Assembly (NCBI GenBank): GCA_041750915.1
Contig: JBGSYJ010000290.1
Coordinates: forward strand, 1-54,436
DNA length: 54,436 bases
Direction of reading: 5' to 3'
Source of the DNA: Thermoanaerobaculia bacterium
GTDB lineage: Bacteria > Acidobacteriota > Thermoanaerobaculia > Gp7-AA8
In this document: positions 28,928 through 51,656 of the stretch, piece after piece
Numbering within the stretch: the first letter of the stretch is position 1
Layout of the letters: the number at the start of each line of letters is the position of its first letter
Made by a program: the position numbers and the translations under genes
Notes under the pieces: model-generated
Databases searched by the model: none
Told to the model about the DNA's origin: nothing
What the model saw: only the letters and a program-made list of their open reading frames with translations

Positions 28928-29089
28928 CCCCTCTCCCCGTGTGAACGGGGAGAGGGGCAAGGGGTGAGGGGCCGTGCATGGAACTCGTATGCAGGCGATC
29001 GCCCGAGAAGCGGCAAGCCCTCAACGCCCCTCTCCCGGCGCGCGAGCATCTCGCAAGTCACTGACATCAGAGCGGATGCCGCGCGCCAC
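28928..29089. repeat. Family E element (CCCTCTCCC..GGGAGAGGG type), left end plus internal segment; right end missing
   Basis: First 32 nt are identical to 54259; 29027..29089 matches 51567..51629 at 56/63. Confidence 0.85.
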
Positions 29090-29102
29090 GATGCCACCGT
29101 TC

Positions 29103-29236
29103 GTAGCGGGACATTCCGATGTCCCGTACCCGAGGGAGTGACTCGGCACGAAGGTTGGAGCATTCATACCGCGCCTTAGCGCCATATCGTGGCACTCTCA
29201 CGATCCCGAAATAGGGCGGATCGGAATCCGCCGCTA
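29103..29236. repeat. Family F REPIN-like element (GTAG-headed REP pair)
   Basis: GTAGCGGGACATTCCGATGTCCCG ... GGCGGATCGGAATCCGCCGCTA; direct copy at 30333. Confidence 0.85.
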
Positions 29237-29243
29237 GGACGCC

Positions 29244-30245
29244 TCAGCGCCAGCGGAAGTCGACGACCACGGGCCGGTGTGAAGATAGCGCGACAGAAAG
29301 ATCCGGCGAGATTCCGAGCGATTCGAGCAGGACCGGGTCGAGGACTTCCGCGTCGAACACCTGCGCCTGCAACACGACGAGTCCGTCCGAGTGCAACAGG
29401 TAGTCGAGCCGGCTCGAGGGATACGGAGTGCCGCGTCCGTCCCAGGTCCAGATCGCATCGCTGCCCCGATGCCTGGCTTCGACAACGGCGAGCGAGAACC
29501 GCTGCGTCGCGCCGCGCTGCATGATGGTGATCGGCGCGTCGCCGCCCGCAGTATTGAAGTCACCGCCGCTCAGAACTGCATCCACATTCCACTCACTTGC
29601 GGTGACGTCGATTGCATCGCGGATCGCGCGCGACTCGAACTGCCTGCGGTCCTCTGCGGGACTGTTCGCGCCATCACCACAGCATTGCAGATCAAGGCCG
29701 ACCACCAGCAGTCGCCGGCCGTTCAGTTCGATGACGCCAGCCACGACGGCGACTCCAGATTCGAGTTCCTCGCGCGCGCGCTGCCGGCGATCGGGGGGCA
29801 CCGACGTTAACCAGCTTTCAATGCGCTCAGGCGGATATCCGAAACGATCGAATTCTGGAATGCGCGTCATCGGTACACGCGCAGCGATCGATGCTCGCTG
29901 GTTCGGTCCACCGCCCGTGCCGTAGAGCACCTGCCACCGATCTCCATCCGCTGGCAGGCCGGCTGCGATGGCAGCGGCGGTGAGGCCGGGCGCCATTTCA
30001 TCGAGAATGAGCAGATCCGCATCCGCTGCGCGCAGCACCTGCTGGAACCCGGCGTTCCTCTCGAGAAACGCGCGATCGATGTTCCATACGAGAACCCGCA
30101 GCGTAGTGCCGGGATGTCGCGCGAGCCATTCACGATCTGCCGGCGCACCGTCCGTAATGGTGATGCACGACGTGCACAGCAGGGCCAGCGCAATCGCGAG
30201 AGCCGAAAGATGACGCAGCGGAGAGAATCGGGACGTGCTCCACAT
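29244..30245 (-). CDS. Endonuclease/exonuclease/phosphatase (EEP) family lipoprotein
   Basis: VWNI, LDE, GGDFN, RLDYLL and SSHRPV motifs; start uncertain. Confidence 0.85.
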   Translation of the reverse strand: MWSTSRFSPLRHLSALAIALALLCTSCITITDGAPADREWLARHPGTTLRVLVWNIDRAFLERNAGFQQVLRAADADLLILDEMAPGLTAAAIAAGLPADGDRWQVLYGTGGGPNQRASIAARVPMTRIPEFDRFGYPPERIESWLTSVPPDRRQRAREELESGVAVVAGVIELNGRRLLVVGLDLQCCGDGANSPAEDRRQFESRAIRDAIDVTASEWNVDAVLSGGDFNTAGGDAPITIMQRGATQRFSLAVVEARHRGSDAIWTWDGRGTPYPSSRLDYLLHSDGLVVLQAQVFDAEVLDPVLLESLGISPDLSVALSSHRPVVVDFRWR

Positions 30246-30332
30246 CGAGTGAACTGCTGTCTGTTGTTCCACCGCCGCACAGTAGACGAACCCGAGACCC
30301 GCGGCAACACACCTGCGACGCCGCCGCTGGCA

Positions 30333-30467
30333 ATAGCGGGACATTCCGATGTCCCGTATCCGAGGCAGTGAAGCGGTACGACGGTTGGAGCATTCATCCC
30401 GCGCCGATGCCCCATACCGCTGCAGCTCTCACGTTTCCGAAACACGGCGGATCGGAATCCGCTGTCA
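30333..30467. repeat. Family F REPIN-like element, second direct copy
   Basis: TAGCGGGACATTCCGATGTCCCGTA..GGTTGGAGCATTCAT..GGCGGATCGGAATCCGC. Confidence 0.85.
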
Positions 30468-30473
30468 GACGAA

Positions 30474-31868
30474 TCAGCCTGGCTCGACGTTCTGATTGTT
30501 CCGGAACAGATTGGACGGGTCGTACTTCTGTTTGATCTCGGCCAGCCGCGCGTAATTTTCTCCGTACGCGGAGTGCGATCCGTCCGGCTCATCGCCATCC
30601 AATAGATTCACGTAGACGCCCCCAGTTGCATGAGGTGCCATCTCACGGTGAAACGTGCGAGCCCAGTCCATCATCGCATCGTCATCCGCAGGATCCGTCC
30701 ATCCGGGAAAGATGTGAATCGCAAACGGTGCCTTCCTGTGTGGGAACGCGGTGGCCGCTGAATCGACGCGGCCGACCGCCCCTCCCTGCGCGTCGAGATA
30801 CACCATGGTGAATGCGCCGGGAAGCTGTGCAGTGTGAGCCAGAATCGTATCGATCGCCTCATCGGAAACTTCGGCGAGATAGTGGGCCTTCGAGTACCAG
30901 CGGTTTCCGGCGGGCGTGCCGGCGTCGAAAGCCTGCTGAAGTTCGACGTACGGCTGGCGGGCGACTCCGTCGAGTATCGGAGTGCCGAGGCTGCGCAGCG
31001 GCGCGATCGCAGCATCGGCATCGGCCGGGTCTCCGGAGTGAGCGACGACGAGATCGATCGCTACCTGTCCGTGAAACTCCTCAGGGAAAACGTCGATCGG
31101 CGGTATGCGAATAAGAAACGCGTAGCACTGAATCTCGTCCGGCGCTTCCGCCATGAATGTCCGGTAGAAACTCAGCACCTCGGCCGCCTGCTCAAAGGGA
31201 TAGATGATCTGTCCTGCGAGGACTTCCGGACCGACTTCATGGAGTCGGAACTCGAATGAAGTCACGACTCCGAAGTTTCCGCTTCCTCCCCGCAGAGCCC
31301 AGAACAGATCGGAGTTCTCTCTCTCGCTCGCGACCACGAGCTCGCCACCCGCTGTCACCACCTCGGCGGACAGAAGGTTATCGATGGCGAGTCCATGTTT
31401 CCTCACCAGATGCCCGCTTCCCCCTCCGAGGGTGAATCCCGCCACGCCAACGGTGGAGACGGTTCCCCCAGTGGTCGCGAGCCCGAAGACCTGGGTTGCT
31501 TTGTCAACATCCCGCCATCGAGCGCCCGGCTGCACCCTGACGGTTCTGGAGCCGGCATCCACCTCGACGTCTCTCATTGCAGAGACGTCGATTACGAGGC
31601 CGCCATCACAGATCGACCTGCCGGAGTAGTCATGTCCGCCGCTCCTGACCGACACGAGGAGATGATTCTGGCGGGCCATGTTCACAGCGGCGATCACATC
31701 GCGCGAGCCGGTGCAGCGAGCGATGGCCGTTGGCCGCCGGTCGAACCGTCCATTCCAGATTTTTCGCGCCTCGTCGTAGCCGTGACTCACACTGGTTAGC
31801 ACCGCTCCGCGCAGAATCTCGCGAAGAGACATCACCATCGAATCGTCCATCGGGGCTCGATCAGTCAT
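30474..31868 (-). CDS. FAD-binding oxidoreductase (berberine-bridge/6-HDNO-like)
   Basis: RSGGHD, GFTLGGG, LFWALRGG, YVN and KYDPSNLF motifs; AAGGAG RBS before ATG 31868. Confidence 0.93.
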   Translation of the reverse strand: MTDRAPMDDSMVMSLREILRGAVLTSVSHGYDEARKIWNGRFDRRPTAIARCTGSRDVIAAVNMARQNHLLVSVRSGGHDYSGRSICDGGLVIDVSAMRDVEVDAGSRTVRVQPGARWRDVDKATQVFGLATTGGTVSTVGVAGFTLGGGSGHLVRKHGLAIDNLLSAEVVTAGGELVVASERENSDLFWALRGGSGNFGVVTSFEFRLHEVGPEVLAGQIIYPFEQAAEVLSFYRTFMAEAPDEIQCYAFLIRIPPIDVFPEEFHGQVAIDLVVAHSGDPADADAAIAPLRSLGTPILDGVARQPYVELQQAFDAGTPAGNRWYSKAHYLAEVSDEAIDTILAHTAQLPGAFTMVYLDAQGGAVGRVDSAATAFPHRKAPFAIHIFPGWTDPADDDAMMDWARTFHREMAPHATGGVYVNLLDGDEPDGSHSAYGENYARLAEIKQKYDPSNLFRNNQNVEPG

Positions 31869-32082
31869 CAAAACTCTCCTTTCAGCCGCGCCTCCCGCTG
31901 CCAGGCAAATTTTCGTCACCACGTACGCCATTGGGGTCGGACGCGTTTTTCCAAGTGACTTATTTGCTCACGCAGCCGAGCCAGCAGCGCTGCGAAAGAT
32001 TCGTCATGCGCCGCGTGCTTATGTGACCCAACTTACCGCAGATTGCGCGGCATGTGACGCACGCTCCGAGGGTAGAGATTGA

Positions 32083-32301
32083 TCAGGCGTAAAGAAGCCG
32101 GCCTTTCGGCTCCGGAATCTCCCGCCCCAGGTCTCTGGCCGTTTCAATCCATTCTGCGATCACGACGCGCGCGTTTGCCAGGGCTTGCTCGTAGGTGGCG
32201 CCATCCGCGGCGCATCCAGGAAGCTCGGGAACTTCGGCAATGTACGCCTCATCCTCGTCGCTCCAGTACAGAATCACCTCATAACGCGGCTCAGCTTTCA
32301 T
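32083..32301 (-). CDS. hicB: HicB family antitoxin
   Basis: YWSDEDEAYIAEVPELPGCAADG..WIETA..IPEP. Confidence 0.9.
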   Translation of the reverse strand: MKAEPRYEVILYWSDEDEAYIAEVPELPGCAADGATYEQALANARVVIAEWIETARDLGREIPEPKGRLLYA

Positions 32302-32552
32302 CTTCGTCTCTCACCAGTTTATTCGACACGATTACGTTTCCTGTTTCACCTGATAGGCCTTCGCCTTTCCTCCGGCGAGCGGCTGCACGTTCAGAATCTC
32401 AGCACTCCGTCTCTCGTAAAGATGTGGTGACTGCCGCGGATCCTTTCTACGAATCCCAAGGCGCGCAATAGCTCACACAAACCTCCGAACGCAATGTTCG
32501 CATCAGACCTTCCTGAAAGGATCTGCGCCAGCAGTTTGGCCCGAGAGGTCAT
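32291..32552 (-). pseudogene. hicA: HicA toxin pseudogene (two frameshifts)
   Basis: MTSRAKLLAQILSGRSDANIAF..LGFVERIRGSHHIFTRDG / EILNVQP..KAKAYQVKQ / NVIVSNKL lie in three separate frame segments. Confidence 0.85.
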
Positions 32553-32692
32553 GACCTCGAACGATCCACGCCGAGCGTGGAAGGGATCTCGTACCGCTCG
32601 CCCAGGCGGGTGCCGGGGGCGAGAAAGAGGATCGCGGACTGTCGCGGCCCGCTGTCGGGCTCGACGGTCTCGGTCTGCCGACCTTCAGTCAT
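32549..32692 (-). pseudogene. N-terminal remnant of a Ser/Thr kinase (47 aa)
   Basis: MTEGRQTETV..LAPGTRLGERYEIPSTLG breaks off where the Gly-rich loop should begin. Confidence 0.6.
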
Positions 32693-33893: not shown

Positions 33894-33957
33894 CTCCAGG
33901 TGTCGTACATCGTTACTGCTCGCGAAGGCAGGGCCTCGGAGGGCCCTGCCACATGGG
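33894..33957. repeat. Family C REPIN-like element, right half
   Basis: TGTCGTACATC..TACTGCTCG..GGCAGGGCCTCGGAGGGCCCTGCCACATGG. Confidence 0.88.
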
Positions 33958-34017
33958 AATTCTTTGTGGGTAATGCCCACTTTACAACATCAGCCACACG
34001 GGCTACATTGAATCTCC

Positions 34018-34637: not shown

Positions 34638-34689
34638 TTCCCCTCAAGGATTGATAGCCTCTCCGATCGGACGGACAGATGCGATGTCG

Positions 34690-34839
34690 CCCATGTGGCA
34701 GGGCCTTCCCAGGCCCTGCCTCTTCCGGATCGTGACGATGTACGAGATCTGGAGCGTTGTCCGTGACGGTGCTGGTCCCAGGTGTCGTACGTCTTTACTG
34801 CTCGAAGAGGCAGGGCCTGGGAAGGCCCTGCCACATGGG
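34690..34839. repeat. Family C REPIN-like element, full copy
   Basis: Inverted GTGG-headed REPs CCCATGTGGCAGGGCCTTCCCAGGCCCTGCC around a semi-complementary spacer. Confidence 0.92.
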
Positions 34840-34862
34840 AGCCGCCGGCGCTGTGGACTAGA

Positions 34863-35837
34863 TCATGGCTCCATCGTGATCACCACATTGCCACGCTTCC
34901 GTCCCGTATCGACGTAGCGATGTGCCTCGATGATCTGGTCGAACGGGTAGCGACGATCGATCACCGGCCTGAACTCGCCGGCTTCCGCCAGTTCGGCGAG
35001 GATTCGCAGATCCTCGGGCCGCTCGCTGGCCGGCCCGGCGATGATCTTTCTGCTTCCCCTCATCGACACCAGCGGCGCGCGCAGCGTCTGCGCGAGGTTG
35101 CCGAGGATCACCAGGAGTCGCCCTCCTTCCGCGAGCGAGTTTCTGACCCGGGAGAACGGAGCTGTGCCCGCCACATCGGCGATCACGTCCCACGTTTCGG
35201 CGTCGCGGGTGAAATCTTCTGTTGTGTAGTCGATCACGCGCGACGCACCGACCGATCCCGCCAGTTCGGCGTTTGCGCTGCTGCACACCGCGGTGACCTC
35301 GGCGCCGAAATGTTTTGCCAGCTGCACGGCCGCCGTCCCGACTCCGCCGGACGCGCCATTGATGAGAACGCGTTCGCCACGCTTGAGCTTTGCTCTCCGG
35401 AAGAAGTCGAGGGCCGTCGTTCCGCCGAACGAAATCGCGGCCGCTTCATCGAAGCTCAGGTTGGAAGGCTTGAGCGCGATCGCGCCATCTTCGTGCATGC
35501 ACTTGTATTCGGCATGACACCCCATCTTCGCCCCGGTGAAGATGAAAACGTGATCGCCGGGCTTGAACTTGCGCACGTTTCTGCCCACGGATTCGATTTC
35601 GCCGGAGAGCTCGGTTCCCAGGATCTTCTGCCGCGGTCCGGTGATTCCCAGAGCCAGGCGGGCCAGCAGTTCGAAGCCGACGGGCACATTCATGCTCCGC
35701 ACTCTCCAGTCTCCGGAGGTGACGGTGGTGGCCCGCGTGCGAATCAATACTTCGTTGTCTTGGGGGGTGGGCTTTTCGATGTCGGTCAGCTGCACGACGT
35801 CGGGAGGGCCGTAGTGATGGTAGAGGGCTGCTTTCAT
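34863..35837 (-). CDS. NAD(P)-dependent MDR-family oxidoreductase (quinone reductase/alcohol dehydrogenase-like)
   Basis: YGPPDV, VLINGASGGVGTAAVQLAK, IDYT and PVIDRRYP motifs. Confidence 0.93.
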   Translation of the reverse strand: MKAALYHHYGPPDVVQLTDIEKPTPQDNEVLIRTRATTVTSGDWRVRSMNVPVGFELLARLALGITGPRQKILGTELSGEIESVGRNVRKFKPGDHVFIFTGAKMGCHAEYKCMHEDGAIALKPSNLSFDEAAAISFGGTTALDFFRRAKLKRGERVLINGASGGVGTAAVQLAKHFGAEVTAVCSSANAELAGSVGASRVIDYTTEDFTRDAETWDVIADVAGTAPFSRVRNSLAEGGRLLVILGNLAQTLRAPLVSMRGSRKIIAGPASERPEDLRILAELAEAGEFRPVIDRRYPFDQIIEAHRYVDTGRKRGNVVITMEP

Positions 35838-35956
35838 GGTGTTGCGCATGGTCCGTGTTTACGAGGGTGGCGATTCGAAGGTTTATGCACTTGCTGGATC
35901 GCGAGGAGTTTGTGAAGAGATACGGATTGCTGGAGCATCGTTTGTTTACGGTGGAG

Positions 35957-36043: not shown

Positions 36044-36199
36044 ATGACCGAGATCATATTTCTCGTGGAAGAAGCCGCCGAGGGTGGGTTCACCGCGCGT
36101 GCGCTTGGCGAATCGATCTATACGGAAGGTGATGATGCGGCGGCACTCGAAGAGAATGTTCGCGATGCCGTGCGTTGCCACTTCGACCTTGCGGACTGA
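36044..36199 (+). pseudogene. C-terminally truncated HicB-like antitoxin, no partner toxin
   Basis: MTEIIFLVEEAAEGGFTARALGESIYTEGDD..VRDAVRCHFD; lacks the usual IRLHFV tail; TAGAAT upstream. Confidence 0.7.
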
Positions 36200-36223
36200 C
36201 TCCGCCACCACCCTGTCCCATCA

Positions 36224-36293
36224 GCAATTACGAATGTACCATCGCGTGAGATCCCTCGCCCCTCCCGCCCACCCGCGCTTGCTCGGGATGACA
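36224..36293. repeat. Family B element, right half
   Basis: ATGTACCATCGCGTGAGATCCCTCGCCCCTCCCGCCCACCCGCGCTTGCTCGGGATGACA. Confidence 0.88.
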
Positions 36294-36338
36294 AATCCTG
36301 CCAAAGAAATTGCCCCAGGATTCATTCGGAACTCAGGT

Positions 36339-37109
36339 TCATTCGCGGAAGCGGATGCCGCGGCTTTCGAGCATGGATCGCACATCTCTCGATAGCCTCT
36401 CCGACCGGAACGCAATCCACTCCTTCTGTAGTCCTCGCCGGTGGATCACATCTCGGAAACGGCGGTATCTTCCGCGCCCGTGAAGCGCGTCTTCGAGGTC
36501 TCGCGATGCGGCGGGGCCTGCGTTCCGCGCAAAACGCCGCATGATGTCGTAGTCGTCGATGTCGAGACGGCCGAGAAGCCTCTCCCAGTCAGCGTTGGCT
36601 GCCATCTCGCGCCCCTCCGCCATCGCGTCAAGGCGCCATTGAGGCTCATCAGGGTCGTCTTCATCATCGAGGTCATTCGCGTCGTCATCCGAAATGTATT
36701 CGTGTTCGATCACCCTGACCTCACCGGTGGTCCGGTTTACATAGAGTGAGGAGTCATTGGTGATGGCGTCGATCTCGTTCAGGATTGCTCCGATCGAAAG
36801 TGGCGCTGCGGGGTCATACGCGACGGTCTCGTCCTCGTTCGGTTCGCTTCGCGCAGGCAGGCTATCGCGGACCGCCTGGAGACTTCTGGCGAGATCTGCC
36901 ACCAACTCGCGCGCCGCCTCGCCAACGTCCTCGATGCTGATGAGCCCGCGGGCTACCGCCCCGGAAACGACAAAAGGCAGATCTTGATTTCTGGCCTCGA
37001 GGTAATGAACGTCGCGATCTTCACGACTCATCTCACGATCGAGCTGGTGAGCCCGCTGCGCCGCCTCGCGGAGAGCGCGCTTCTCTGCTTTGGTCAGGTT
37101 GTGGAACAT
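36339..37109 (-). CDS. UPF0158 family protein with N-terminal extension
   Basis: YVNRTTGEV, DYDIMRRF, ALHGRGRYRRFRD..W motifs. Confidence 0.8.
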   Translation of the reverse strand: MFHNLTKAEKRALREAAQRAHQLDREMSREDRDVHYLEARNQDLPFVVSGAVARGLISIEDVGEAARELVADLARSLQAVRDSLPARSEPNEDETVAYDPAAPLSIGAILNEIDAITNDSSLYVNRTTGEVRVIEHEYISDDDANDLDDEDDPDEPQWRLDAMAEGREMAANADWERLLGRLDIDDYDIMRRFARNAGPAASRDLEDALHGRGRYRRFRDVIHRRGLQKEWIAFRSERLSRDVRSMLESRGIRFRE

Positions 37110-37156
37110 CAGTCAAGTCCTCCTCGCGATAATCTCACGGGCACATGCGATGTCGC

Positions 37157-37306
37157 CCATGTGGCTGGGCCCTCCGAGGCCCTGCCTCTTCCGGATCGTG
37201 AAGATGTACGACAATTGGAGCTTTGTCCGTGATGGTGCAAGCGCTCCTTGTGTCGTACATCTTTACTGCTCGAAAAGGCAGGGCCTCGGAGGGCCCTGCC
37301 ACATGG
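37157..37306. repeat. Family C REPIN-like element, full copy
   Basis: Same arms and spacer as 34690..34839, including the upstream ATGCGATGTCGC. Confidence 0.92.
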
Positions 37307-42101: not shown

Positions 42102-42132
42102 GGGCATACGCACGACGGCGACGGGTGCCACC

Positions 42133-42163: not shown

Positions 42164-42168
42164 TCCTC

Positions 42169-43938
42169 TCAGGGTCCCGCGAGTTTTGCGAGCTCGCGCT
42201 TGATTTCGTCGTGGAGGTCTTTGGGGGCGCCGTAGAAGATTTTTACGATGCGGCCCTGCGAATCGGCGAGGAAGAGGGTGGGGACGGCGGGGGGGCCGTT
42301 GAAGGCTTTTCTCAGTTCATCGGTGCCGAGGACGATGCGGGCGTTTGGCTTGTATTTGTCGATGACTTTGTCGATGTCGGGGCGTTCCGATTCGATCGCG
42401 ACGGCGACCATCGTGGCGGATGAGGAGTCCATTCCTTTCATCCATTCGAGCGTGTCGATGCAGTAGGGACACCAGGTTGCCCAGAACTCGACGAGAACGG
42501 GCTTTCCTTTCAGATCGGAAAAGCGGAACGTCGCGCCGTTGAGGTCGGTCATCGCGAAATCGGGAAGGGTGAGATTTGCGGAGCCTTGCACCGCCGGCGT
42601 CTGCGAGTCCGCGACGGCGCCGCCGGAGAGCCGGATGTCGAGCATCTTCTTCAGGTCGGACTGAAACTTCCGGCGGTTCTCGAGGTCGGTCCACGGTATG
42701 TACTTGCCATTGCCCGGACCACCCCACGCGAAGAAGTCTTCAGGTCGCGCCACGAGCGCATCATCGACGAAGATCGCAGGGTATTTGTCCACGCCATACC
42801 CTTCGGCGAGAGGGGAAGCGCCGAGGTCTTCGACGACGAAGCGCGCGCGAGTGCCGTACTGCTGAACCACTTCCTTTGCCAGCAAACTTGCCGGGTCGGA
42901 GAGGCTTCACGTGTAAGGCCAGCGCACGAGCGTGACGGTCACGAGCGATGGAGCTGAAGGTGAGGCCTTCCGGTCGAGGGCAAGCGAGTCGTACAGCGGG
43001 ATGAGATCGTTGCGCACGACTGTGGCGAGCGGCGCCTCTTCGGTGTCGAGCATCGCAACGAGCATCGAACGGACTCCATCTGAGCTCGCAGGATGACCTT
43101 CCTCTGCGGGAGTGATGCCCGCGTCTCGCACACCGGGACGCGTGCTGAGCGCGAGCCTCGATTCGATGAGCAGGATCGCGGAACCTTCGAGAAGGCCGGC
43201 GCCGAAGAGCTCACGCGCTTCCTTGAGACGGACGCTGACGGGAATCATCGAGTTCGCGCCAGGATCGTCGCCGAACACTTTCACTGTTTCGTCTTCGAGC
43301 GCGTCGATGGCAAGGCCGAGAGATTCGCGGTTGATCTGCGCTCCCGTTTTGTGAGCCGGCAGATCGAGCGACGCGACGAAGTCGCGGAACTTCAGATTTC
43401 CATGGGCCTCGGCAAGGTAATAAAGGCCGCTCGACGGAGAGTCGATCTTCGCGTAGGCGATGCTTGCGCGATACAGCTTCTCCGCGCGATTTCCGGCAGC
43501 CTGCACGAGGCCGCGCTGCAGAGAGTGTGTTGCATCATCGGGAATCGATGTTTCGAATCGGGCTTCTGACGACTTCCAGAGCCGTTCGAAGCTCTCGAGA
43601 TCGGCAGAGGCGTCCGCGTTCGCTGCGATGAATGAGAAGGTCTCGAATGCGGTGAACGGGTCTCGAAGCCGGTAGAGTCGAAGTACATCCGACGATGCTG
43701 CCTTCGGTCTGTCGAGAGACGTCGCAGCCGGTTTCGGGACGCCTTTCAACACGCCGGGCAGCTCGGCGCTTTCGTGCTCGACGACAAGACCGTCGAGCCG
43801 TGCGATCTCAGCATCGAGCTGGGAGGTGAGACTGCGCGGCGGCTGAATTGCTGGAGCGCTGCACGAGATGGCGCCAAGCAGGATGGACGCGTACACGACG
43901 CATGCGGGGGCGACGTCTTTCAGATTCTTGCGTTTCAT
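42169..43938 (-). CDS. Putative selenoprotein (589 aa, Sec at codon 344): lipoprotein helical domain + thioredoxin-like UxxS domain + TlpA-like CxxC domain
   Basis: ORFs 42907..43938 and 42169..42885 are in one frame separated by a single TGA: VTVTLVRWPYT-U-SLSDPASLLAKEV; WATWCPYC downstream. Confidence 0.75.
42868..42906 (-). promoter_or_regulatory. Bacterial SECIS-like hairpin
   Basis: TCC..CCGGCA-AGTT-TGCTGG..GGA; apical loop follows the TGA after 18 nt and has G at loop position 2. Confidence 0.6.
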
Positions 43939-44011: not shown

Positions 44012-44056
44012 AGTGAAGAGTGAAGAGTGAAGAGTGAAGGGTGAAGAGTGAAGAGT
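44012..44056. repeat. Heptamer tandem repeat AGTGAAG x6
   Basis: Runs directly into a family B element. Confidence 0.88.
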
Positions 44057-44214
44057 TGTCATCCCGAGCCTGGTTGTGCGAGCGGGCGGGGCGAGGGATC
44101 TCCGGCGATGGTACATATTTGCCTATCGGCCGCGGTCATTACGTCGATAAAGAATCACGAATGTACTATCGCCGGAGATCCCGCCCGCACACCCGCGCTT
44201 GCTCGGGATGACAA
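44056..44214. repeat. Family B palindromic element (small deletion in right arm)
   Basis: TTGTCATCCCGAGC...GCTCGGGATGACAA. Confidence 0.88.
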
Positions 44215-44226
44215 GCACGAGTGTCC

Positions 44227-44385
44227 TCACCTGGGACGGTTCTTCGTCTTCTCTCCCGAGTTTCGCGGTTGATCGGATTTCCGTCCGCCGAAGACGGTCT
44301 GCTGCGGGATCAGGTCGGTGAGCCGGATCGGCTTTTCGGAATCCTCAGCCGGCGGTTTGGCGGGCGGACCTTTCCTCGACACCAT
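44227..44385 (-). CDS. 52-aa peptide with double-glycine-like leader (putative PCAT substrate)
   Basis: ..KPIRLTDLIPQQTVFGG|RKSDQPRNSGEKTKNRPR; last gene behind the C39 transporter operon. Confidence 0.6.
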   Translation of the reverse strand: MVSRKGPPAKPPAEDSEKPIRLTDLIPQQTVFGGRKSDQPRNSGEKTKNRPR

Positions 44386-44398
44386 GAGCGCGACTGTA

Positions 44399-44413
44399 AC
44401 AGGATCAGTGCCA
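44399..44413 (-). promoter_or_regulatory. Possible variant sigma54 promoter for the peptide gene
   Basis: TGGCAC-N5-CTGT (GC changed to GT at -12), 13 nt upstream of ATG 44385. Confidence 0.35.
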
Positions 44414-44851
44414 TCTCGCGATGAGGAGCTGTAAATCATTCGCATCCGACGGGATGAGGATGCATGCAGCGTTCGCGGACGGTGGCGGGCGGCACCGTCG
44501 CGAACCGCGCGCGGCTTTAGAAAAGAACAGCGGAGGCTCTATCCCGGAGCCGCTCCGGAGAGATGGCGGGCGAGCGGTGAATGCGCCGCGCTCATGTCCG
44601 AACAGCTGGCTCTCGAGCAGGGTGTCGCTCATCGCAGATGCGTTGAATGAGATGAACGGCCCGGTCGAGCGGGCAGACGAGTTGTGAATCGCCTGCGCGA
44701 GGAGCGTCTTGCCCGTGCCGGTTCGCCCGAGGATGAGGACGGGGATGTCGGTGCGAGCGGCGAGCGTGGCGAGCTGAAGGCAACGCTGCATCGCCGCGTT
44801 GTTCGAAGTGAGCTCCTCGACCCGGAATCTGGAGAGCCGGTGCTCGGTCAT
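44405..44851 (-). pseudogene. Truncated sigma54-dependent activator (AAA+ N-terminal part only)
   Basis: GRTGTGKT, ESQLFGHERGAFT, then homology ends at ~44577; no Walker B or HTH. Confidence 0.85.
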
Positions 44852-46035
44852 GACTTCAGGTTCTCCCGGATCTTGCGGAGTGGCTCGAACGCGTACTCGA
44901 TCAGCGAGCGGCGGCCGACGGTGATGCGTGCCTCGCCCTGCATCCCGGCGCGCAGCGGATACGTCTTGTCGCCTGATCTGATCTCCGCTCGCTCGAGCGA
45001 TGCCCGCGCGACGAAGGCAGAACCGCCGCTGCGTGAAACGGCGGCCGGACTGATCCAGTCGATCGCGCCTGTGAGCACACCGTAGCGCTGATAAGGGAAC
45101 GCGTCGAAGAAGAGCCGTACCGTCTGCTTCGGCTGGAGTTGCGAAAGCCCGCTCTCAGGGAGCTCGAGCCTCGCTTCGAGCCGTCCGCTGACGGGACTCA
45201 ACTGGCAGAGCTCTTCACCCGGCGCGACGACGCTTCCGGCATTCTGTCGTGTGACTGCGATACAGACGGCATCGTACGGCGCGCGGATCTCCAGCAGCCC
45301 GTTCGAGCTCGCCGTGAGCGGTGCGTCGAGCGCGGCGATTCGAATCGAGAGATCATCCATCGCAGAACGCTCTTCGATCCGCTGCCTTCCCCGTGTGATG
45401 TCGAGCGACTCCCGCTCCAGCTGCCGTTGGGCGAGGTCTTTCCGCGCGAGCTCGAGATCTTTTTCCGACTGTTCGAGACTCAGACGGTGCGCTGCAAGCT
45501 CGATGTCCGAGATGAACCCGGTGGCCGCAAGCTTCTGCACGCGGGCCCAGAGGTCGCGCATCGTCTCGAGATGCCGCGTCCTGAAGGTCATCTCGCGTCG
45601 CGCCTGTTCGATCTCGCTGTCTTTGATGCGCAGCGCCGACGCGTGCGACTCCTCGAGCTTCCGGGCTGTCTGCTGAAGCGAGCCGAGGGACTGTCGCCGC
45701 GCCTCTGTGTCGGTGGTCCAGTCGCGCACATCGTCGACACGCATGATGAAGAGCGGATCACCCTTCTTCACTTCCTGTCCGACCTTCAGGTTCACCCGTT
45801 CGAGCACAGCCTGTCGAGGTGAGGCGATCGGATCAGCGCCTCCGTCAGTGACGAGAACGAAGCGGGCGTCCACCGTTTCGGAAACTCTGACGACGATGGA
45901 AGCGATCACGACGACGGCGAACAGCGTGATGATGAGCCAGGCGAGTGCGCGCACAAACCACGGCGGCGGCTCGCTCGCGACAAGCGGCGCGTCCTCTTCC
46001 CACCTGGAACCCTGGTTGAAATTTGCCGGACTCAT
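44848..46035 (-). CDS. HlyD family membrane fusion protein
   Basis: N-terminal TM, coiled coil, IRAPYD, DAFPYQRYG..G, LRAGM and LIEYAFEPL motifs. Confidence 0.92.
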   Translation of the reverse strand: MSPANFNQGSRWEEDAPLVASEPPPWFVRALAWLIITLFAVVVIASIVVRVSETVDARFVLVTDGGADPIASPRQAVLERVNLKVGQEVKKGDPLFIMRVDDVRDWTTDTEARRQSLGSLQQTARKLEESHASALRIKDSEIEQARREMTFRTRHLETMRDLWARVQKLAATGFISDIELAAHRLSLEQSEKDLELARKDLAQRQLERESLDITRGRQRIEERSAMDDLSIRIAALDAPLTASSNGLLEIRAPYDAVCIAVTRQNAGSVVAPGEELCQLSPVSGRLEARLELPESGLSQLQPKQTVRLFFDAFPYQRYGVLTGAIDWISPAAVSRSGGSAFVARASLERAEIRSGDKTYPLRAGMQGEARITVGRRSLIEYAFEPLRKIRENLKS

Positions 46036-46037
46036 GA

Positions 46038-49000
46038 TCAGATTCCCAGCTGCTGGCTCGAGAGATAGAAGTACAGCCCTCTCGCGCTCATCAGTTCATC
46101 GTGCGTACCCGTCTCGGCAATCTCACCCCTCTCGAGCACTACGATTCTGTCGGCATCGCGGATGGTACTGAGGCGGTGCGCGATGATCACAGCCGTGCGG
46201 CCCGACATGAGCCGCGTGAGGTTCTGCTGGATCGCACGCTCCGACTCCGAGTCGAGTGCGCTCGTCGCCTCATCGAAGATGAGAATCGGCGGATCGTTGT
46301 AGACCGCGCGCGCGATCGAGATGCGCTGTTTCTGGCCGCCGGATATCGCGAGTCCCGACTCGCCGATCCGCGTCTCGTATCCGAGTGGTAGCCGCATGAT
46401 GAAGTCGTGTGCGTTCGCGAGCTGCGCGGCCCAGAGCGCGCGATCAAAATCCGGCTCGATATCGCCGAATGCGATGTTCCGGAGAATCGTCTCGTCGAAC
46501 ATGTGATTTTCCTGAAGCACCAGCCCGATCTGCTTCCGCAGATCGCGATGATTCAGCGTCCTCATGTCTACGCGGTCGAACAGGATCGTGCCTTCGGTCG
46601 GCTCGAGCAGTCCCGCAAGCAACTTGACGAGCGTCGTCTTTCCGCATCCGCTCCGTCCGACGAGGGCGACCGTCTTCCCCGGCGCGATCTCGAGGTCGAT
46701 CCCGCTGAGAATCGTCGGCGACTCCGGCCCGCCGTATCGAAACCCCGCCTTCCTCATCTCGATCCGTCCTTCGAGCGAGGAGACAGGAACGAGCGCCGAG
46801 CGGTCGTGCCCCTGTTCGGGCTCCTGCTCGAAGACGTCATCGAGGCGTCCCAGCATCACGACTGCCCGCTGGTACTCGTCCCAGATTCCGAGGGCTCGCA
46901 TGATCGCCCCGAATGCCATGAGCGTCAGGGCGTTGAATGCCACGAAGACGCCGATGGTGATCTCCCCCGCGATGACCATCCGCGCGCCAACCCAGAGAAA
47001 CAGAGCCGTCGCGAGCATTCCGACGACCTGGATCATGCTCTCGTACGTCATCACGACGAAGCTTCCCCGGAACATCTTCTTCGCGACTCTGAGGAATTCG
47101 TTGAGCATTGCGTCGCGGAACGTCTGCTCGGCGGAGGCAGCTTTGACCGCTTCGATCCCTTTGATTGCGTCGATCTGATGGGAGCTGTATCGCCCCCAGC
47201 TTTCTTCGATGTCCGCGAAGAGAGGACGGAGGAGGCGGACCGAGAAGTACATCAGCGCAGCGTAGAACGGCACCGTGAGGAGAAAGACGCCTGCAAGCTT
47301 CGCGCTGTAGAACGCCATCAGCACGAGAGCGCCCAGCAGACTGATGATCGAGAGAACGCCTCCGATGCCCTGCTGAACCGCGAACTGCCTGACCTCACGG
47401 GCACCGTCGAGCCTTCTCTGGATGTCGCCGGTCCTGCGGCTGTTGAAGTACGACAATGGCAGAGCGAGCAGTTTCCGCGTGAGAAAATCGAGAATCCCCG
47501 AGTCGATGCGAACGGCCGCGAAGGCGAGCAGATACTGCTGCGCGAGGTTCGACAGCACCATGAACACGAGCGCGATCACCATGCCGATCACGATGATGTT
47601 GAGCATGCCGACGTCGTTCTCGACGATCACCCGGTCGACCACCATCTGCGTGAAGATCGGAAAGATCAGCTGCAACAGGGTGACGATTCCGGCGAGGAGA
47701 AAGACCTGAAGAAAGAGTGTCTGATAGCCGGAGAAGAAAGGCTTCAGCCAGGCGACTCCTCCTGTGCCTTCAGGCGTTTCCGCGAACTTGTCCGTGTAGT
47801 CGAAGAGCGCTGCATAGCCGGACCACCGCTGCTCGAATTCGGCGCGCGGAATCTTCCTGATACCGCTTGCCGGATCGGCGACGCGGACATACTTCGGACC
47901 GACGTCGAACACCACGAGCCAGTGGTTGCCCTCCCAGTGAGCGATCGCCGGCATCGGCATCAGCGGCAGGTTCCGCGGAGTCACCTTGAGCGCGCGCGCG
48001 GCGAGCCCCAGCTCGGTCGCCGCGCTGCAGAGGGCTTTCAGGCTCGTGCCGTCTGTCGAGGTGAAACAGAGCTTTCGGATGCGGGCGAGGCTGACCTTCC
48101 GTCCGAAGTGGCGACAGATCATTCCAAGCGCCGCGGCGCCGCAGTCCATCTCGTCGATCTGGCTGACGAAGGGGAACTTGCGAATGCGTTTGCCCCTCCG
48201 CGGCTCGTCTTTTTCGTCATCGAGATCAGAGCCGTCGGTCTGGTCGAGGCCGACTTTCGAGCTGACGCTCGCTTCCGCCGGCAACATCTCGCGCGCGAAA
48301 TCGAGCGGGACGCGCGCTTCTGCATTTACGTTGTATTGCGCCAAGCGCTCGGCGAGCAGCTTCTCGAACTCGGGGAACCTGCTCCGGAGCTCGAGCACCG
48401 TCTCGGGAGGCAGCGCGAGGAGCGTGCAGTCTGTTACGGCGTCGACAGATGCTGCACGCGTCGAGCCGTTGAGGATCGACAGCTCTCCGAAGAAATCTCC
48501 TTCCCGGTAAAACGCAAGGAGCTTCGGCTGTCCGTTGTCGCTGTCGAACGCGCGCACTTTTCCTGACTGCACGACGTACATCGGACCTGCAGCATCGCCC
48601 TTGCTCAGGATCCTCGAGCCCGCGGGATACGTTTCGGGAGTGAGCCGCTGAATCAGCTCGTTGAGCGCCGGCTCAGGAAGTCTGCCGAAATTGCTGAACT
48701 CGTATAGAAAGCCGTGGAGGGTGCGGTAGCGCTGCGTCGCCTCCAGGTATCCCCGCAGCTCGGGATACTGTGTGATGAGGCGGTCGAAATCGTCGCGTGA
48801 AAGACGAAGCGCCTCCACGAGACTCGAGCAGCGAACGCTCGCCGTCCGCACCTCTTTCGTCAGAAGCGCCGATTCGCCGAACTCGCTTCCCGGCCGGAGC
48901 ACGTTGAGGGCGATCTCGTCACCCCGCTCGGTTGTCTTGATGACCCGCGCACGCCCCGCCGTCAGAATGTAAAACGCGTCCGCGGGATCGCCCTGACGCA

Positions 49001-49118
49001 CGATCACGTCGCCAAAGTCGTACTGGACCTTGTGGAAGAGACCGCGCACCCGTTCCTGATGTTCCGGAGGAAAGAACCGGAAGAGGGATGACTGGCTGAG
49101 AAAAGGCTCGGTGCTCAT
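46038..49118 (-). CDS. Peptidase-containing ABC transporter (2x cNMP-binding + C39 + TMD + NBD)
   Basis: FGESALL / FFGELSIL cNMP motifs; QIDEMDCGAAAL, HW..NHW; GRSGCGKT, SGGQKQR, DEATSALD. Confidence 0.95.
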   Translation of the reverse strand: MSTEPFLSQSSLFRFFPPEHQERVRGLFHKVQYDFGDVIVRQGDPADAFYILTAGRARVIKTTERGDEIALNVLRPGSEFGESALLTKEVRTASVRCSSLVEALRLSRDDFDRLITQYPELRGYLEATQRYRTLHGFLYEFSNFGRLPEPALNELIQRLTPETYPAGSRILSKGDAAGPMYVVQSGKVRAFDSDNGQPKLLAFYREGDFFGELSILNGSTRAASVDAVTDCTLLALPPETVLELRSRFPEFEKLLAERLAQYNVNAEARVPLDFAREMLPAEASVSSKVGLDQTDGSDLDDEKDEPRRGKRIRKFPFVSQIDEMDCGAAALGMICRHFGRKVSLARIRKLCFTSTDGTSLKALCSAATELGLAARALKVTPRNLPLMPMPAIAHWEGNHWLVVFDVGPKYVRVADPASGIRKIPRAEFEQRWSGYAALFDYTDKFAETPEGTGGVAWLKPFFSGYQTLFLQVFLLAGIVTLLQLIFPIFTQMVVDRVIVENDVGMLNIIVIGMVIALVFMVLSNLAQQYLLAFAAVRIDSGILDFLTRKLLALPLSYFNSRRTGDIQRRLDGAREVRQFAVQQGIGGVLSIISLLGALVLMAFYSAKLAGVFLLTVPFYAALMYFSVRLLRPLFADIEESWGRYSSHQIDAIKGIEAVKAASAEQTFRDAMLNEFLRVAKKMFRGSFVVMTYESMIQVVGMLATALFLWVGARMVIAGEITIGVFVAFNALTLMAFGAIMRALGIWDEYQRAVVMLGRLDDVFEQEPEQGHDRSALVPVSSLEGRIEMRKAGFRYGGPESPTILSGIDLEIAPGKTVALVGRSGCGKTTLVKLLAGLLEPTEGTILFDRVDMRTLNHRDLRKQIGLVLQENHMFDETILRNIAFGDIEPDFDRALWAAQLANAHDFIMRLPLGYETRIGESGLAISGGQKQRISIARAVYNDPPILIFDEATSALDSESERAIQQNLTRLMSGRTAVIIAHRLSTIRDADRIVVLERGEIAETGTHDELMSARGLYFYLSSQQLGI

Positions 49119-50206
49119 CTCACCACGCGAATCGCATTTGACGGCTGGATGTGACGGCTGCAGAGGTCTGCGAACGTCTCATCGAGAACAACCCGATCGA
49201 TCCTCTCGACTACGGCGGGATCGGAGAGAGAAGGGTCGAGCTTTCTGATGAGCTGGTAGACGCGGAATCCGTCATCCACACTGACGGGTGCGAGCGCCTC
49301 TCCCACTTCGGCGCAGAACAGCCGCTGCGCGAGCCCCGGCTCGACTCCTTCGAGCCAGACCTCTGTCTCCTCGGAGATGTACCCGCTCTCTTCCGCCACT
49401 TTCTCGAGCGTCGTGCCGTCTTCCCGCACGCACAGAACCGCTTCTTTCGCTGCGGCCTCTGAGTCGAGGTCGAGCGTCCGGATCGCGACGCGTTCGAGAG
49501 CTGTTCCGAGCGCGTGAAGGTGCCGCTGCCTCGCCTCGGCTGTCAGCGCCTTTGATCGGATGGCTTCGTAGGCGGCTTCGAGCCGGAGCATCTCGTCGAG
49601 CCACGCCTGCGCGCGTTGCGTGTTCTCGAGCCATTCGGCGATGCCGGATATGTCCAGTTGGTGGCGAGCAAAAAACGCCTCGCGCGCCCTTGTGATGTCG
49701 ATCAATTCTTTACTTTGTTCGATCTCGAGCGCACTCGCGACACGTCGCTGCAGCGCGTCGTCGAGAGCATCCATGCGGTCTGACATCCAGAGGTGCACAG
49801 CCAGTCGGCGGTTGAGGTCTTCGAGCTCCCCGGCAGGCGGTGCGTCCGGCAGCTCAGTTCTGCATACTCGCGCAGCGATCCAGGCGCCGAATTCATCGGT
49901 GGTCAGCCCGCGAGCCCGAATCCATTCTTCCGTCTCTCCTGCGGTGATGAGATCGCGGGCGTAACGGTATCTGTCTGAAAACGCCTGGAGGTCTTCGGAA
50001 TCGGGTTCGTGACCCCGCTCCTCTGCGAGCTCCTCCGCACCTGCCAGCTCGAGCGTTTCGCGGATCGCGTCGTGGAGTTCATTGCGAAAGACCGCTGCGG
50101 CGAGGGCGTCGTCGACGGTCCAGGACTTTCCACCAGCGACGAACAGCACGATCCCGCTGAGCGCCGTGCTCAGATCCCTCGCCAGCAATCGTTCCGAAGC
50201 GGGCAT
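49115..50206 (-). CDS. Parvulin/PpiC-like chaperone typically encoded with cNMP-PCAT operons
   Basis: FSDRYRYARDLITA..WIRARGLT; AAKEAVLCVREDG..VAEE; ATGA overlap with the transporter. Confidence 0.65.
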   Translation of the reverse strand: MPASERLLARDLSTALSGIVLFVAGGKSWTVDDALAAAVFRNELHDAIRETLELAGAEELAEERGHEPDSEDLQAFSDRYRYARDLITAGETEEWIRARGLTTDEFGAWIAARVCRTELPDAPPAGELEDLNRRLAVHLWMSDRMDALDDALQRRVASALEIEQSKELIDITRAREAFFARHQLDISGIAEWLENTQRAQAWLDEMLRLEAAYEAIRSKALTAEARQRHLHALGTALERVAIRTLDLDSEAAAKEAVLCVREDGTTLEKVAEESGYISEETEVWLEGVEPGLAQRLFCAEVGEALAPVSVDDGFRVYQLIRKLDPSLSDPAVVERIDRVVLDETFADLCSRHIQPSNAIRVVR

Positions 50207-50320
50207 CGATCACTCTCCAGACAGCCTGCCCGGTCCATACCGGAGGCGGGCAGGCTGTACAACCGGGACATTGGAAAGAGGCGACTAGTATCCCCTAACA
50301 CTGGCAAAACAGGGGAGCCT

Positions 50321-50465
50321 CATGTGGCAGGGCCCTCCGAGGCCCTGCCTTTCCATATCGTCGAGACGTACTGCACCTGGACCTTTCATCACGGGTCGTC
50401 GCTCCAGGCGTCGTACAACTTCACGGCTCGGAAGAGGCAGGGCCTCGGAGGGCCCTGCCAGGTGG
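50321..50465. repeat. Family C REPIN-like element, full copy (diverged spacer)
   Basis: CATGTGGCAGGGCCCTCCGAGGCCCTGCC...GGCAGGGCCTCGGAGGGCCCTGCCA. Confidence 0.88.
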
Positions 50466-50521
50466 GAACGGGGCCGGAATCAGCTACGATATGTCCCGTT
50501 CCCAACTGATGCGAGGTCCCG

Positions 50522-51566
50522 GTGAACATTCAGAGCCGCGTCCGGCGGATCTATGAGCGTCGTCCCTATCCGCCTCCGGAACTGCGAAGAAAAGGGGAGC
50601 GGTGGTCGTTGCCGCCGCTCGAGTGGATTCTTGCAGTATCCGACCCGGAGGCACCTCCGGTCCGCACGATTCTCGTTGCGGGATGCGGTGTCGGAAGCGA
50701 GGCATTCGCGTGCGCCCGGCGCTTCCCGACGGCGGACGTTGTCGGAGTCGATTTCAGCCCACGCTCGATAGAGACGGCGCGGCGGCTTCAGCGTGGGGTG
50801 CCCGAAAAGGGATCGAATCCGATTCGAAGTAGCCGACCTCACCGACTCGAGGCTGCCGGAGATTACCGGTGGGGAATTTGATCTCGTCTCGTGTCATGGG
50901 GTGCTCTCGTACATTCCCGATCCAGGGGAGACGCTCCGCTATTTCGTGAAGGCAATGTCGAAATGGGGCACGCTCGTACTGGGAGTGAACGGGGCGATTC
51001 ATCCGAGTCTCCAGATCCGCGTTCGCTCCCGCTGTTCGGAGTGAATCCTGATGAGTTTCACGACACGAAGAGAAGTCGGGCGGTGCTTGCGATTCACGAT
51101 TCGATCATGGTTCATCCGTCGGTGAATCTTACCGACGAGACGCCTGAGTACATCGCGAGCGATATCTTCGGTCCGCTGAATCAGTCGTTGCCGCTGCGGG
51201 AGTGGAGCCGTATGTGCCGTGACGCGGGGCTGCATCTGCGTTCGAACTTCTACGCGAACATTTCGCTGCGGGAGGTTCTGAACCGCGGACAGCAGCCGCT
51301 GCTGATGCCGCGCTCGAGGGCGGAGGTCAGCGAGCTGTTCGACGTGATCCAGCCGGGAACCTTCTACCGCGCGGTTTACTCGCGCCGGCGGCCGAAGGAA
51401 CCAGACTGGGCGGATGGCAGATCGCTCCTCGACTGGAAGCCGGTCATCTCGTCCCTGTTCAAGTTCGAATGGCCCGCCGCCGGCGGCGCGTGGCACAACC
51501 TCAAACAGTGAGCGAGCAGCTGTACATTCTTCACCAGCTGGCGGTGATCAATCTGCTGCCTCGTTC
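50522..51566 (+). pseudogene. Class I SAM-dependent methyltransferase, frameshifted
   Basis: VRRIYERRPYP, ILVAGCGVG, VDFS / FDLVSCHGVL / later segments lie in different frames (breaks near 50800, 51030 and 51505). Confidence 0.8.
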
Positions 51567-51656
51567 CCCCTCTCCCCGCGCGCGACGATCTCGCAAGTCC
51601 TCGACATCAGCGCGGATGCCGCGCGCCACCCTCTCCCCGACTTCGCCGGGAGAGGG
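51567..51656. repeat. Family E element, internal segment plus right end; left end missing
   Basis: Direct repeat of 29027..29089, then CCCTCTCCC..GGGAGAGGG. Confidence 0.85.

Follow-up and report, generated by a model that had tools for sequence, protein, structure and literature searches.

A lineage-specific segment in an order-wide conserved gene cluster

We analysed a 54,436-nt stretch of DNA from a Thermoanaerobaculia bacterium (assembly GCA_041750915.1, contig JBGSYJ010000290.1), hereafter the window, which is the entire contig C290 of genome G000, a 483-contig draft of 4.72 Mb that is 90% complete and 4% contaminated. Within the window lies an accessory island (28928-51678, about 22.75 kb) that has a partial copy of a dispersed repeat, element E, at either border and separates a Wzy-type O-antigen ligase gene from a conserved cluster of ECF sigma, HEAT-repeat and DUF4097 genes. 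The two flanks are as follows.

25583..28787, minus strand: conserved left flank, with a DUF4097 gene (25583-27220), a HEAT-repeat gene (27220-28227) and an ECF sigma factor gene (28206-28787), assigned by Pfam; collinear with contig C129 of the same-genus genome G001
51607..52956, minus strand: Wzy_C-type O-antigen ligase/polymerase gene (Pfam), the right conserved flank

Forty relatives, 27 of them from the same order, were searched with the Wzy-type ligase and DUF4097 proteins. In 25 of the 27 same-order genomes a single contig carries both matches at a distance of 1.64-2.48 kb, which leaves just enough space for the sigma and HEAT genes; in G000 they are 24.4 kb apart. All 25 informative relatives (G001, G003-G019 and G021-G027) are empty at this spot, and the remaining two, G002 (contig edge) and G020 (78% complete, without a DUF4097 match), are uninformative. 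Because the flanks are adjacent in 25 of the 27 order-level relatives, the segment is a lineage-specific insertion in the roughly 170-bp spacer between the Wzy gene and the ECF sigma–HEAT–DUF4097 cluster, in agreement with an earlier sequence-only reading of this DNA that had proposed an accessory insertion with an empty site in relatives.

The limits of the insertion can be placed precisely against G001, a sister species (species identity 79%) and the sole same-genus genome compared. There, 171 bp separate the ligase stop from the sigma start, and positions 5785->5979 of C129 correspond by BLAST to window positions 51731->28835. Flank homology reaches the GCATT that precedes the left hairpin of the left E copy and restarts about 50 bp beyond the tail of the right copy; the inserted DNA therefore starts and ends with canonical E termini. 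The sequence-only reading had predicted an empty site in which the ECF sigma and Wzy genes are joined across one intact E. The joining is borne out, whereas the 171-bp spacer of G001 contains no E sequence. Identity of the flanks to G001 is 75-83% at the nucleotide level with no obvious step, and the 20 kb left of the island (4400-24399) are collinear with one G001 contig at 75-78%, interrupted only by extra copies of the repeat families R1-R3. A search for a close strain with the Wzy protein in metagenome contigs returned 22 loci, all at 57% identity or less and none close, and the DUF4097 protein gave a single, unrelated match (28%) among genome contigs.

The borders are complementary parts of one element

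Element E is dispersed over 132 merged loci of the 4.72-Mb assembly; it measures about 220 bp and is full-length in 69 of 135 BLAST hits. It opens with GCATT and a left hairpin (CCCCTCTCCCCGTGTGAACGGGGAGAGGGG); a middle part leads to the 63-bp core, whose stem is GGCGCGCG...CGCGCGCC, and the right hairpin (CCCTCTCCCCGACTTCGCGGGGAGAGGG) is followed by a tail (GAGAGCACG...GCATT). The motif CCCCTCTCCC occurs three times in it, at positions 6, 106 and 169. The island borders contain the following parts.

28923..29089, plus strand: left E copy, E positions 1-168 (GCATT, left hairpin, middle and core), lacking the right hairpin arm
29027..29089, plus strand: left copy of the 63-bp repeat (E core with the GGCGCGCG...CGCGCGCC stem)
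51567..51681, plus strand: right E copy, E positions 106-220 (core, right hairpin and tail), lacking the left hairpin and the middle; it contains the right copy of the 63-bp repeat (51567-51629) and ends in GCATT at 51674-51678

The right copy starts at the second CCCCTCTCCC and the left copy stops just before the third. Their shared core forms a direct repeat (29027-29089 and 51567-51629, 56 of 63 positions identical) that brackets about 22.5 kb. Both this repeat and the complementary split, with only the left E end on the left (E positions 1-168) and only the right E end on the right (106-220), had been described from the letters alone and are confirmed here. The outer ends of the island are canonical E termini as judged by a consensus from 64 full copies; GCATT stands at both (28923-28927 and 51674-51678) and is also part of the consensus ends of single E copies.

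The two truncations differ in how often they recur. No other E hit has the shape of the left copy, which stops at position 168 (1 of 135 E hits). The right copy belongs to a recurrent short form with nine non-edge hits, itself included, that start at E positions 80-106; one short-form E, on C376, has GCATT in front like the full element. In G001, the same 5'-truncated E stands on C146 directly behind the ortholog of the open reading frame (ORF) at 50891-51511, the last gene of an island block that carries a PCAT operon, and homology to the island ends just past the E tail. It follows that the right copy moved together with the PCAT block and is older than the separation of the two species: it is ancestral to that block.

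The cores tell a further story. Of the 101 copies that include the core, none is closer to the left core than the right one (rank 1/100); seen from the right core, the left one ranks 22/100. Two substitutions found in no other copy give both cores the form ACATCAG (2/101), where the commonest form is ACGTCTG (25 of the 37 cores parsed by the pattern), and a pattern search with 2 mismatches allowed hit these two copies alone in G000 and nothing in G001. The suggestion that the borders are split like attL and attR thus holds in part: the left core is indeed closest to the right core, with two private substitutions, but the right copy is a recurrent short form that in G001 also sits behind the PCAT block, rather than half of a split target, and the empty site of G001 has no E.

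Such borders raise the possibility of unit transposition, in which a 'giant E' whose inner ends were lost would have moved all 22.75 kb as one cargo by means of E's enzyme, perhaps a Y1 transposase. The inserted DNA is bounded exactly by canonical E termini at a conserved, otherwise empty site, the inner ends are absent, the truncations are complementary and the cores are sisters; the genome also holds eight Y1_Tnp loci, and repeats of the families R1-R3 have moved since G000 and G001 split. An ordinary E insertion that was filled from inside later explains these borders equally well, however, and in G001 the right copy and the PCAT block occur without a left part of E in the 8.2 kb upstream (to the contig end). 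Neither a second copy of the unit nor another left-only E was found. No transposase is tied to E: none of the eight loci of the Y1 domain PF01797 is E-flanked, with no E within 2.5 kb of any of them in this 90% complete assembly, in which a gene could have been missed. Moreover, single-strand 'peel and paste' transposition drops steeply with element length. We therefore consider movement as one unit quite unlikely.

Two further observations concern sequences related to E or read from it. The last ~33 codons of the Wzy-type ligase ORF (51607-51705, minus strand) are read from the right E copy: residues 417-449 match other E copies only, the alignment with G001 stops at residue 416, other E copies translate to the same tail, and the same-genus ortholog has a different end. 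Just right of the flank, at 54255-54433, lies a member of the repeat family R7 (128 loci), which opens on a left hairpin resembling that of E and closes with an AT-rich inverted repeat of 39 nt.

Assembly and read-derived contigs

Because the island ends in a repeat, a wrong assembly path has to be weighed. Such a chimera would mean that in the true genome a single E lies between the sigma and Wzy genes, that the 22 kb lie elsewhere between E parts, and that the assembler strayed through E hairpins. The draft consists of 483 contigs with 4% contamination, E hairpins are almost identical between copies, and many contigs of the assembly end in E. The longest exact matches among E copies, however, span only about 40-54 nt, and after 22 kb the path rejoins the correct ancestral neighbour in the correct orientation, for which two matched errors would be needed among roughly 100 alternatives.

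Read-derived evidence came from Logan contigs of four runs of one study, placed on 32001-52000, a range that has the left junction outside it. These contigs end at each repeat in all four runs; they bridge no junction, which suits a chimera, and neither back nor contradict the module order. The depth of unique island pieces is nevertheless even within each of the four runs (about 29, 8, 5.5 and 5), a dip at 40.7-42.0 kb in run X3 being at noise level for ~5x, and sampled 31-mers over the left junction are 96% and 89% present in two runs, possibly including the source sample. Taken together, a chimera appears very unlikely.

The same contigs bear on the circular junctions that the sequence-only reading had suggested looking for, and on deletion joints. 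Joints such as 33957->34691, 34720->37252 and 37318->50431 were considered as excisions and rejected; all of the joints have fewer than 31 matching letters on one side and read as other R6 or R2 copies, and they lend excision no support.

The interior is a mosaic of native-looking accessory DNA

Between the E copies lie the following genes, remnants and repeats, in which R2, R3, R5 and R6 denote families of dispersed repeats; lines that name no strand describe features to which none was assigned.

29103..29236, plus strand: R5 copy 1, 134 nt with a hairpin at each end, probably the sequence-only reading's family F
29244..30344, minus strand: endonuclease/exonuclease/phosphatase (EEP) family gene (Pfam)
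30334..30462, plus strand: R5 copy 2
30474..31931, minus strand: FAD-binding/BBE oxidoreductase gene; ortholog on G001 C74 (75.5% nt) with other neighbours
32086..32684, minus strand: genes for the antitoxin HicB (32086-32310) and, as a weak remnant, HicA (32394-32684)
33894..33958: R6 half element consisting of one REP-like arm
34681..34848: R6 full element, REPIN-like, a 149-nt near-perfect hairpin; probably family C of the same reading
34863..35849, minus strand: zinc-type dehydrogenase / quinone oxidoreductase (MDR) gene; block 34869-35990 is 90% identical to G001 C116
35910..36001: degenerate R6 half, present beside the MDR ortholog in G001 too
36199..36303: partial R2 element
36339..37109, minus strand: gene for a 256-aa protein with no family match (Pfam, NCBIfam)
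37147..37318: R6 full element
37320..40479, plus strand: diguanylate cyclase (DGC) gene with Reg_prop/Y_Y_Y sensor repeats and GGDEF (Pfam)
40479..40526: R6 half, abutting the DGC stop codon
41086..41694, minus strand: second ECF sigma factor gene, SigZ-like
41776..42027, plus strand: DUF7010 fragment (profile positions 90-153 of 172), a gene remnant
42001..42170: partial R3 followed by a heptamer-repeat piece
42172..43938, minus strand: two in-frame ORFs joined by a single TGA (42907-42909), with two thioredoxin-like parts, the second with WCPYC
44012..44219: heptamer array with an R2 element behind it; 2-6 bp later the PCAT block begins
44225..44851, minus strand: sigma-54 activator remnant, lacking ~690 internal bp present in G001
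44848..50206, minus strand: PCAT operon, collinear with G001 C146 (78%), with genes for an HlyD-type adaptor (44848-46035), a cNMP-binding, C39 peptidase and ABC exporter protein (46038-49118) and a PpiC-related peptide-maturation protein (49115-50206)
50313..50470: R6 full element with a counterpart at the orthologous position in G001 C146
50510..51041, plus strand: methyltransferase gene in two frames (50510-50878 and 50772-51041)
50891..51511, plus strand: ORF lacking about 145 bp relative to G001

The longest DGC ORF starts at 37090, before R6, and runs through it; the start at 37320 is thus putative. A UPF0158 label given to the gene at 36339-37109 from its sequence is not confirmed: neither Pfam nor NCBIfam matches it.

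Parts of the interior can be traced to the sister species, where they are dispersed over four contigs (C146, C116, C74 and C83). The largest block, 44225-51505, is collinear with G001 C146:8273-16239 at 78-87%; 34869-35990 together with 32568-32707 matches C116 at 90-94%, 30481-31847 matches C74 at 75.5% and 32076-32328 matches C83 at 94%. For the remaining island, including the diguanylate cyclase gene, no DNA match was found in G001. Three genes are nearly absent from relatives: in a protein search, the EEP gene, the 343-aa ORF of the TGA-joined pair and the 256-aa gene each went unmatched in the one same-genus genome and had a match, at 30-36% identity, in only one of 25 relatives; these 25 relatives include an unpublished genome, G030, in which there was no match. 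Island genes are single copy in the assembly except for a 305-bp stretch covering hicB (31923-32227), which is 98% identical to the genome's own contig C49 (2902-3206). As this identity is far above that of other island segments to the rest of the genome, the hicB stretch appears to be a recent local duplication or conversion. Several genes are decayed, namely the sigma-54 activator, the split methyltransferase gene, the ORF short by ~145 bp and the DUF7010 fragment.

As the sequence-only reading had stated, no integrase or transposase is present: Pfam searches of 35 long ORFs (E<=1e-3) and of 140 stop-to-stop frames from stretches without gene assignment (E<=0.01) found no integrase, transposase or recombinase domain in the island. 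The window contains no tRNA gene, and Rfam at gathering scores gave no match inside the island. The composition is ordinary, with a GC content of 0.618 in the island and 0.609 in the flank and a tetranucleotide distance at the 56th-88th percentile of 924 genome windows. Together with the repeat families that the island has in common with G001, two of which occupy orthologous positions, this composition fits DNA from the same lineage or a close relative. The interior is thus a mosaic of native-looking accessory DNA from several sources.

Such content might suggest that a ready-made island entered from a close relative filled at the same spot, by a double crossover in the Wzy and sigma/DUF4097 genes. 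A segment without mobility genes and of ordinary composition is what this route would deliver, and Oliveira, Touchon, Cury and Rocha (2017, PMC5635113) describe it for hotspots without mobile elements and name the O-antigen (rfb) region as a recombination-prone hotspot flank in E. coli. With all 25 informative relatives empty, however, no donor with a filled spot is known. The flanks show no obvious step in their 75-83% identity to G001, and the identities of the interior blocks (75-94%) fit vertical descent within the genus. Import of a finished island would also shift the question of its first construction to another lineage. We regard it as unlikely.

A side observation concerns the joined ORFs at 42172-43938. 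The TGA at 42907-42909 links the 343-aa ORF to the redoxin ORF and follows a strand-like stretch (VTVTLVRWPYT) ahead of a helix-like segment; read through, the two could form a 593-aa selenoprotein with a second, WCPYC-containing thioredoxin-like domain. In this genome selB scores above its cut-off, and a SECIS-like fold looked for downstream of the TGA gave no significant hairpin (z 0.13).

REPIN-type hairpins are concentrated in the island

Two of the repeat families in the island resemble REP and REPIN elements. Within the window both are confined to the island, as had been said of the families that we take to be R6 and R5; genome-wide they occupy 147 and 94 loci. The R6 copy at 34690-34838 forms a hairpin of 149 nt from two inverted REP-like arms (dG -62.6 kcal/mol, z -13.6), and R5 is a sharply bounded 134-nt unit, with 60 of 83 hits sharing the start and 57 of 83 the end position. 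The Y1 transposase domain PF01797 occurs above the Pfam cut-off at eight loci in G000. One of them (C181:10675-10923) is ringed by R6 copies at 9323-9469, 10130-10276, 10950-11094 and 13099-13187, and another is flanked by the R5 end hairpin (C136:3404-4302); both loci have the arrangement of a RAYT gene with its cognate REP.

R6 is accordingly REPIN-like, and R6 and R5 both display the two main hallmarks of REPIN/RAYT systems, with the Y1 proteins as candidate RAYTs that may instead belong with IS200-type TnpA. The REP/REPIN label of the sequence-only reading is therefore fair for these two families, whose copies flank Y1 genes. Because two Y1 loci are flanked by R6 and R5 copies, respectively, the genome probably runs several REPIN/RAYT pairs in parallel.

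Repeat density in the island had been suspected to exceed the genome average. It does: short repeats with at least 5 other copies make up 7.9% of island bases (13 loci) against 5.3% of the genome. The island is not unique in this respect, as 299 other 22.8-kb windows average 4.3% and 7 loci, and 2.3% of them reach the island values. Most of the excess is due to R6, which is more strongly clustered, with 6 loci against 0.68 expected (Poisson 8e-5) and a maximum of 3 in the 299 other windows, although long contigs are R6-depleted, contigs tending to break at R6; the island is the densest R6 cluster on long contigs. From 33.9 to 40.5 kb the island is an alternation of R6 copies and single genes. 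The degenerate R6 half beside the MDR gene is present in both species and is therefore older than their split.

Hairpins close to stop codons, which the sequence-only reading had pointed out, do stand about 0-15 bp from gene ends: an R5 copy ends at 29236 before the EEP stop at 29244, the other at 30462 before the FAD-BBE stop at 30474, R6 ends at 34848 before the MDR stop at 34863, and the R6 half starts at 40479, where the DGC stop lies. A position next to stop codons, at gene ends, is the usual habit of REP elements.

From these features the same reading had derived an integron-like platform mediated by REPs and REPINs, in which RAYT-type enzymes would capture and lose hairpin-bounded cassettes. 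R6 is REPIN-like with a candidate RAYT gene, it is strongly clustered in the island, it alternates with single genes over 33.9-40.5 kb, and the MDR gene and its R6 half have stayed together in both species despite different contexts. A capture-and-loss platform would be expected to use its spot repeatedly, yet not one of the 25 informative relatives has anything there. The genes run in both directions and, unlike cassettes, include regulatory ones (the second ECF sigma factor and the sigma-54 activator remnant); the traceable PCAT block (7.3 kb) is multigene, with R6 inside it. No credible excision joints occur among the Logan contigs, REPs at gene ends are the norm, and no case of gene mobilisation by RAYTs appeared among the titles and abstracts listed by a literature search. 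We find this platform highly improbable.

Several other repeats in the window deserve mention. R3, R1 and R2 copies at 7700-8030, 15661-15781, 19370-19634 and 20619-20754 have no counterpart, or a much shorter one, at the orthologous sites of G001 (333 bp in G000 against 6 bp in G001 C36, for example); being present in one species and absent in the other, R1-R3 have moved since the species split. Arrays of a 7-base unit (GTTCTGA and the complement-type AGTGAAG) at 25181-25576, 40609-40662, 44012-44050 and 7676-7707 form partly long inverted repeats and adjoin other repeat families. At 7136-7336, a 30-bp tandem repeat lies inside an ORF on one or the other strand (6918-7583 plus or 6958-7656 minus) and would encode a lysine/alanine-rich, histone-H1-like repeat protein. 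The sole Rfam match of the window, to Intron_gpII (55-129, plus strand; 47.1 bits, gathering score 40), sits in a stretch with more than 80 further copies in the genome, and one dispersed repeat family may for this reason derive from the end of a group II intron.

A proposed origin by repeat-aided recombination

We give about an even chance to the reading that the island was built by repeat-aided recombination without a site-specific enzyme; the route of recombination and the number of events are its inferred part. Dispersed repeats would have served as portable homology. A short-form E behind the PCAT block would have paired, through its conserved right arm, with an E (or E-like target) in the Wzy/sigma spacer, and the far end of the incoming DNA would have joined at the core/right-arm boundary of a full-type E copy, either illegitimately or by subsequent loss of the left copy's right arm. 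A single event of this kind, or a few, might suffice to build the segment. The many gene remnants suggest relaxed selection afterwards, under which genes would have gone on decaying, and the REP/REPIN-type hairpins in the island would be ordinary intergenic passengers. The 63-bp direct repeat would be a by-product across which recombination could remove the island and leave one intact E; the borders are att-like only in that such recombination would delete the island.

Two more specific versions were considered and set aside. A crossover within the core as the sole source of the 63-bp repeat would give complementary hybrids, not sister cores. A role for R5 as the left homology anchor finds no support: it begins at 29103, 13 nt past the E part, and no other E is interrupted by R5.

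A number of points weigh against repeat-aided recombination. ACATCAG is common to the two border cores only, and the left core is closest to the right one, which a simple crossover of unrelated E copies would not predict; given the ancestry of the right copy with the PCAT block, any recombination model therefore requires an added core duplication or gene conversion. That the target already carried an E is an assumption, as the same-genus site has none. The left junction holds 13 nt (29090-29102) of no traced origin and shows no clear microhomology. No recombination intermediate, donor site or reciprocal product was found, and the module order is that of the original assembly only. Finally, the borders of the traceable blocks do fall at repeats, as the sequence-only reading had expected of gene-gain breakpoints, all four in G000 lying within 25 bp of a repeat or inside one; the coincidence carries little weight, since repeats occupy a large share of the spacers. 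We dropped it as proof, because non-coding DNA is moreover unalignable at 79% species identity.

The locus is, in sum, an integrase-free, repeat-bordered, REPIN-rich mosaic island of an ordinary kind with an unusual border, and no demonstrated capture system.

Comparison with known systems

This locus speaks to a wider question, the origin of the many accessory islands in which no mobility gene can be recognised. A classical genomic island is likewise a large lineage-specific insert between direct repeats that recombination could cleanly remove. The present one differs in having no integrase, no tRNA or tmRNA and no odd composition; its 'att' repeats are two of ~130 dispersed-element loci, and the empty site is without the repeat. 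Integron arrays share with it the succession of single genes separated by structured repeats, here over 6.6 kb. Unlike them, the island has no IntI, attI or common promoter, uses both strands, includes regulatory genes and carries genome-wide REP-type repeats rather than attC sites.

REP/REPIN elements and RAYT transposases are reportedly treated together by Bertels and Rainey in 2011. R6 resembles them as a ~150-nt two-arm hairpin at 147 loci outside genes, with four copies round a Y1_Tnp gene, as does R5 with its hairpins round another Y1_Tnp gene, and one genome holds several such families and eight Y1 loci. E departs from this pattern in having two different end hairpins and no RAYT gene beside it in the assembly. 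REPINs, moreover, are not known to carry genes.

Pairs of miniature inverted-repeat elements (MITEs) may bracket and move the DNA between them, and homology-facilitated illegitimate recombination uses a homologous anchor. The island is similar in that two non-autonomous copies bracket a cargo and a short repeat is a possible single anchor. It differs from MITE pairs in that its copies are complementary truncations overlapping by 63 bp and that a target duplication is inseparable from E's own GCATT ends. Of what defines a composite transposon, neither the same unit at another site nor a cognate transposase was found in the assembly or in G001. If the island did move as a giant E, dispersed REP/MITE-like repeats would be a vehicle for integrase-free gene relocation in Acidobacteriota-type genomes.

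Oliveira, Touchon, Cury and Rocha (2017, PMC5635113) report that half of the hotspots in their data are without mobile elements and 27% without any mobility protein, and propose homologous recombination. The island is like these mobile-element-free hotspots in being an accessory block between core genes with no integrase, transposase or tRNA and with a surface-polysaccharide gene at its flank. A hotspot as defined there shows turnover in many genomes, whereas only one lineage carries an insert here and all 25 informative relatives lack one; in addition, the island borders are ends of dispersed repeats, and the content looks native rather than foreign.

REPs have themselves been proposed as recombination sites, and recently acquired islands in Pseudomonas described as 'REP deserts', by Loper et al. 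(2012, PMC3390384). By that description the island, which is R6-dense, runs counter to the Pseudomonas rule that lineage-specific regions are REP-poor, and its R6 density together with its ordinary composition points to DNA of the same lineage or a close relative and not to a recent foreign import. The locus is a clean case, with an exact insertion in an order-wide conserved cluster, repeat ends as borders and a content partly traceable to sister-species loci. If the repeats did act as portable homology or as transposon ends, repeat-rich genomes could reshuffle native genes without integrases.

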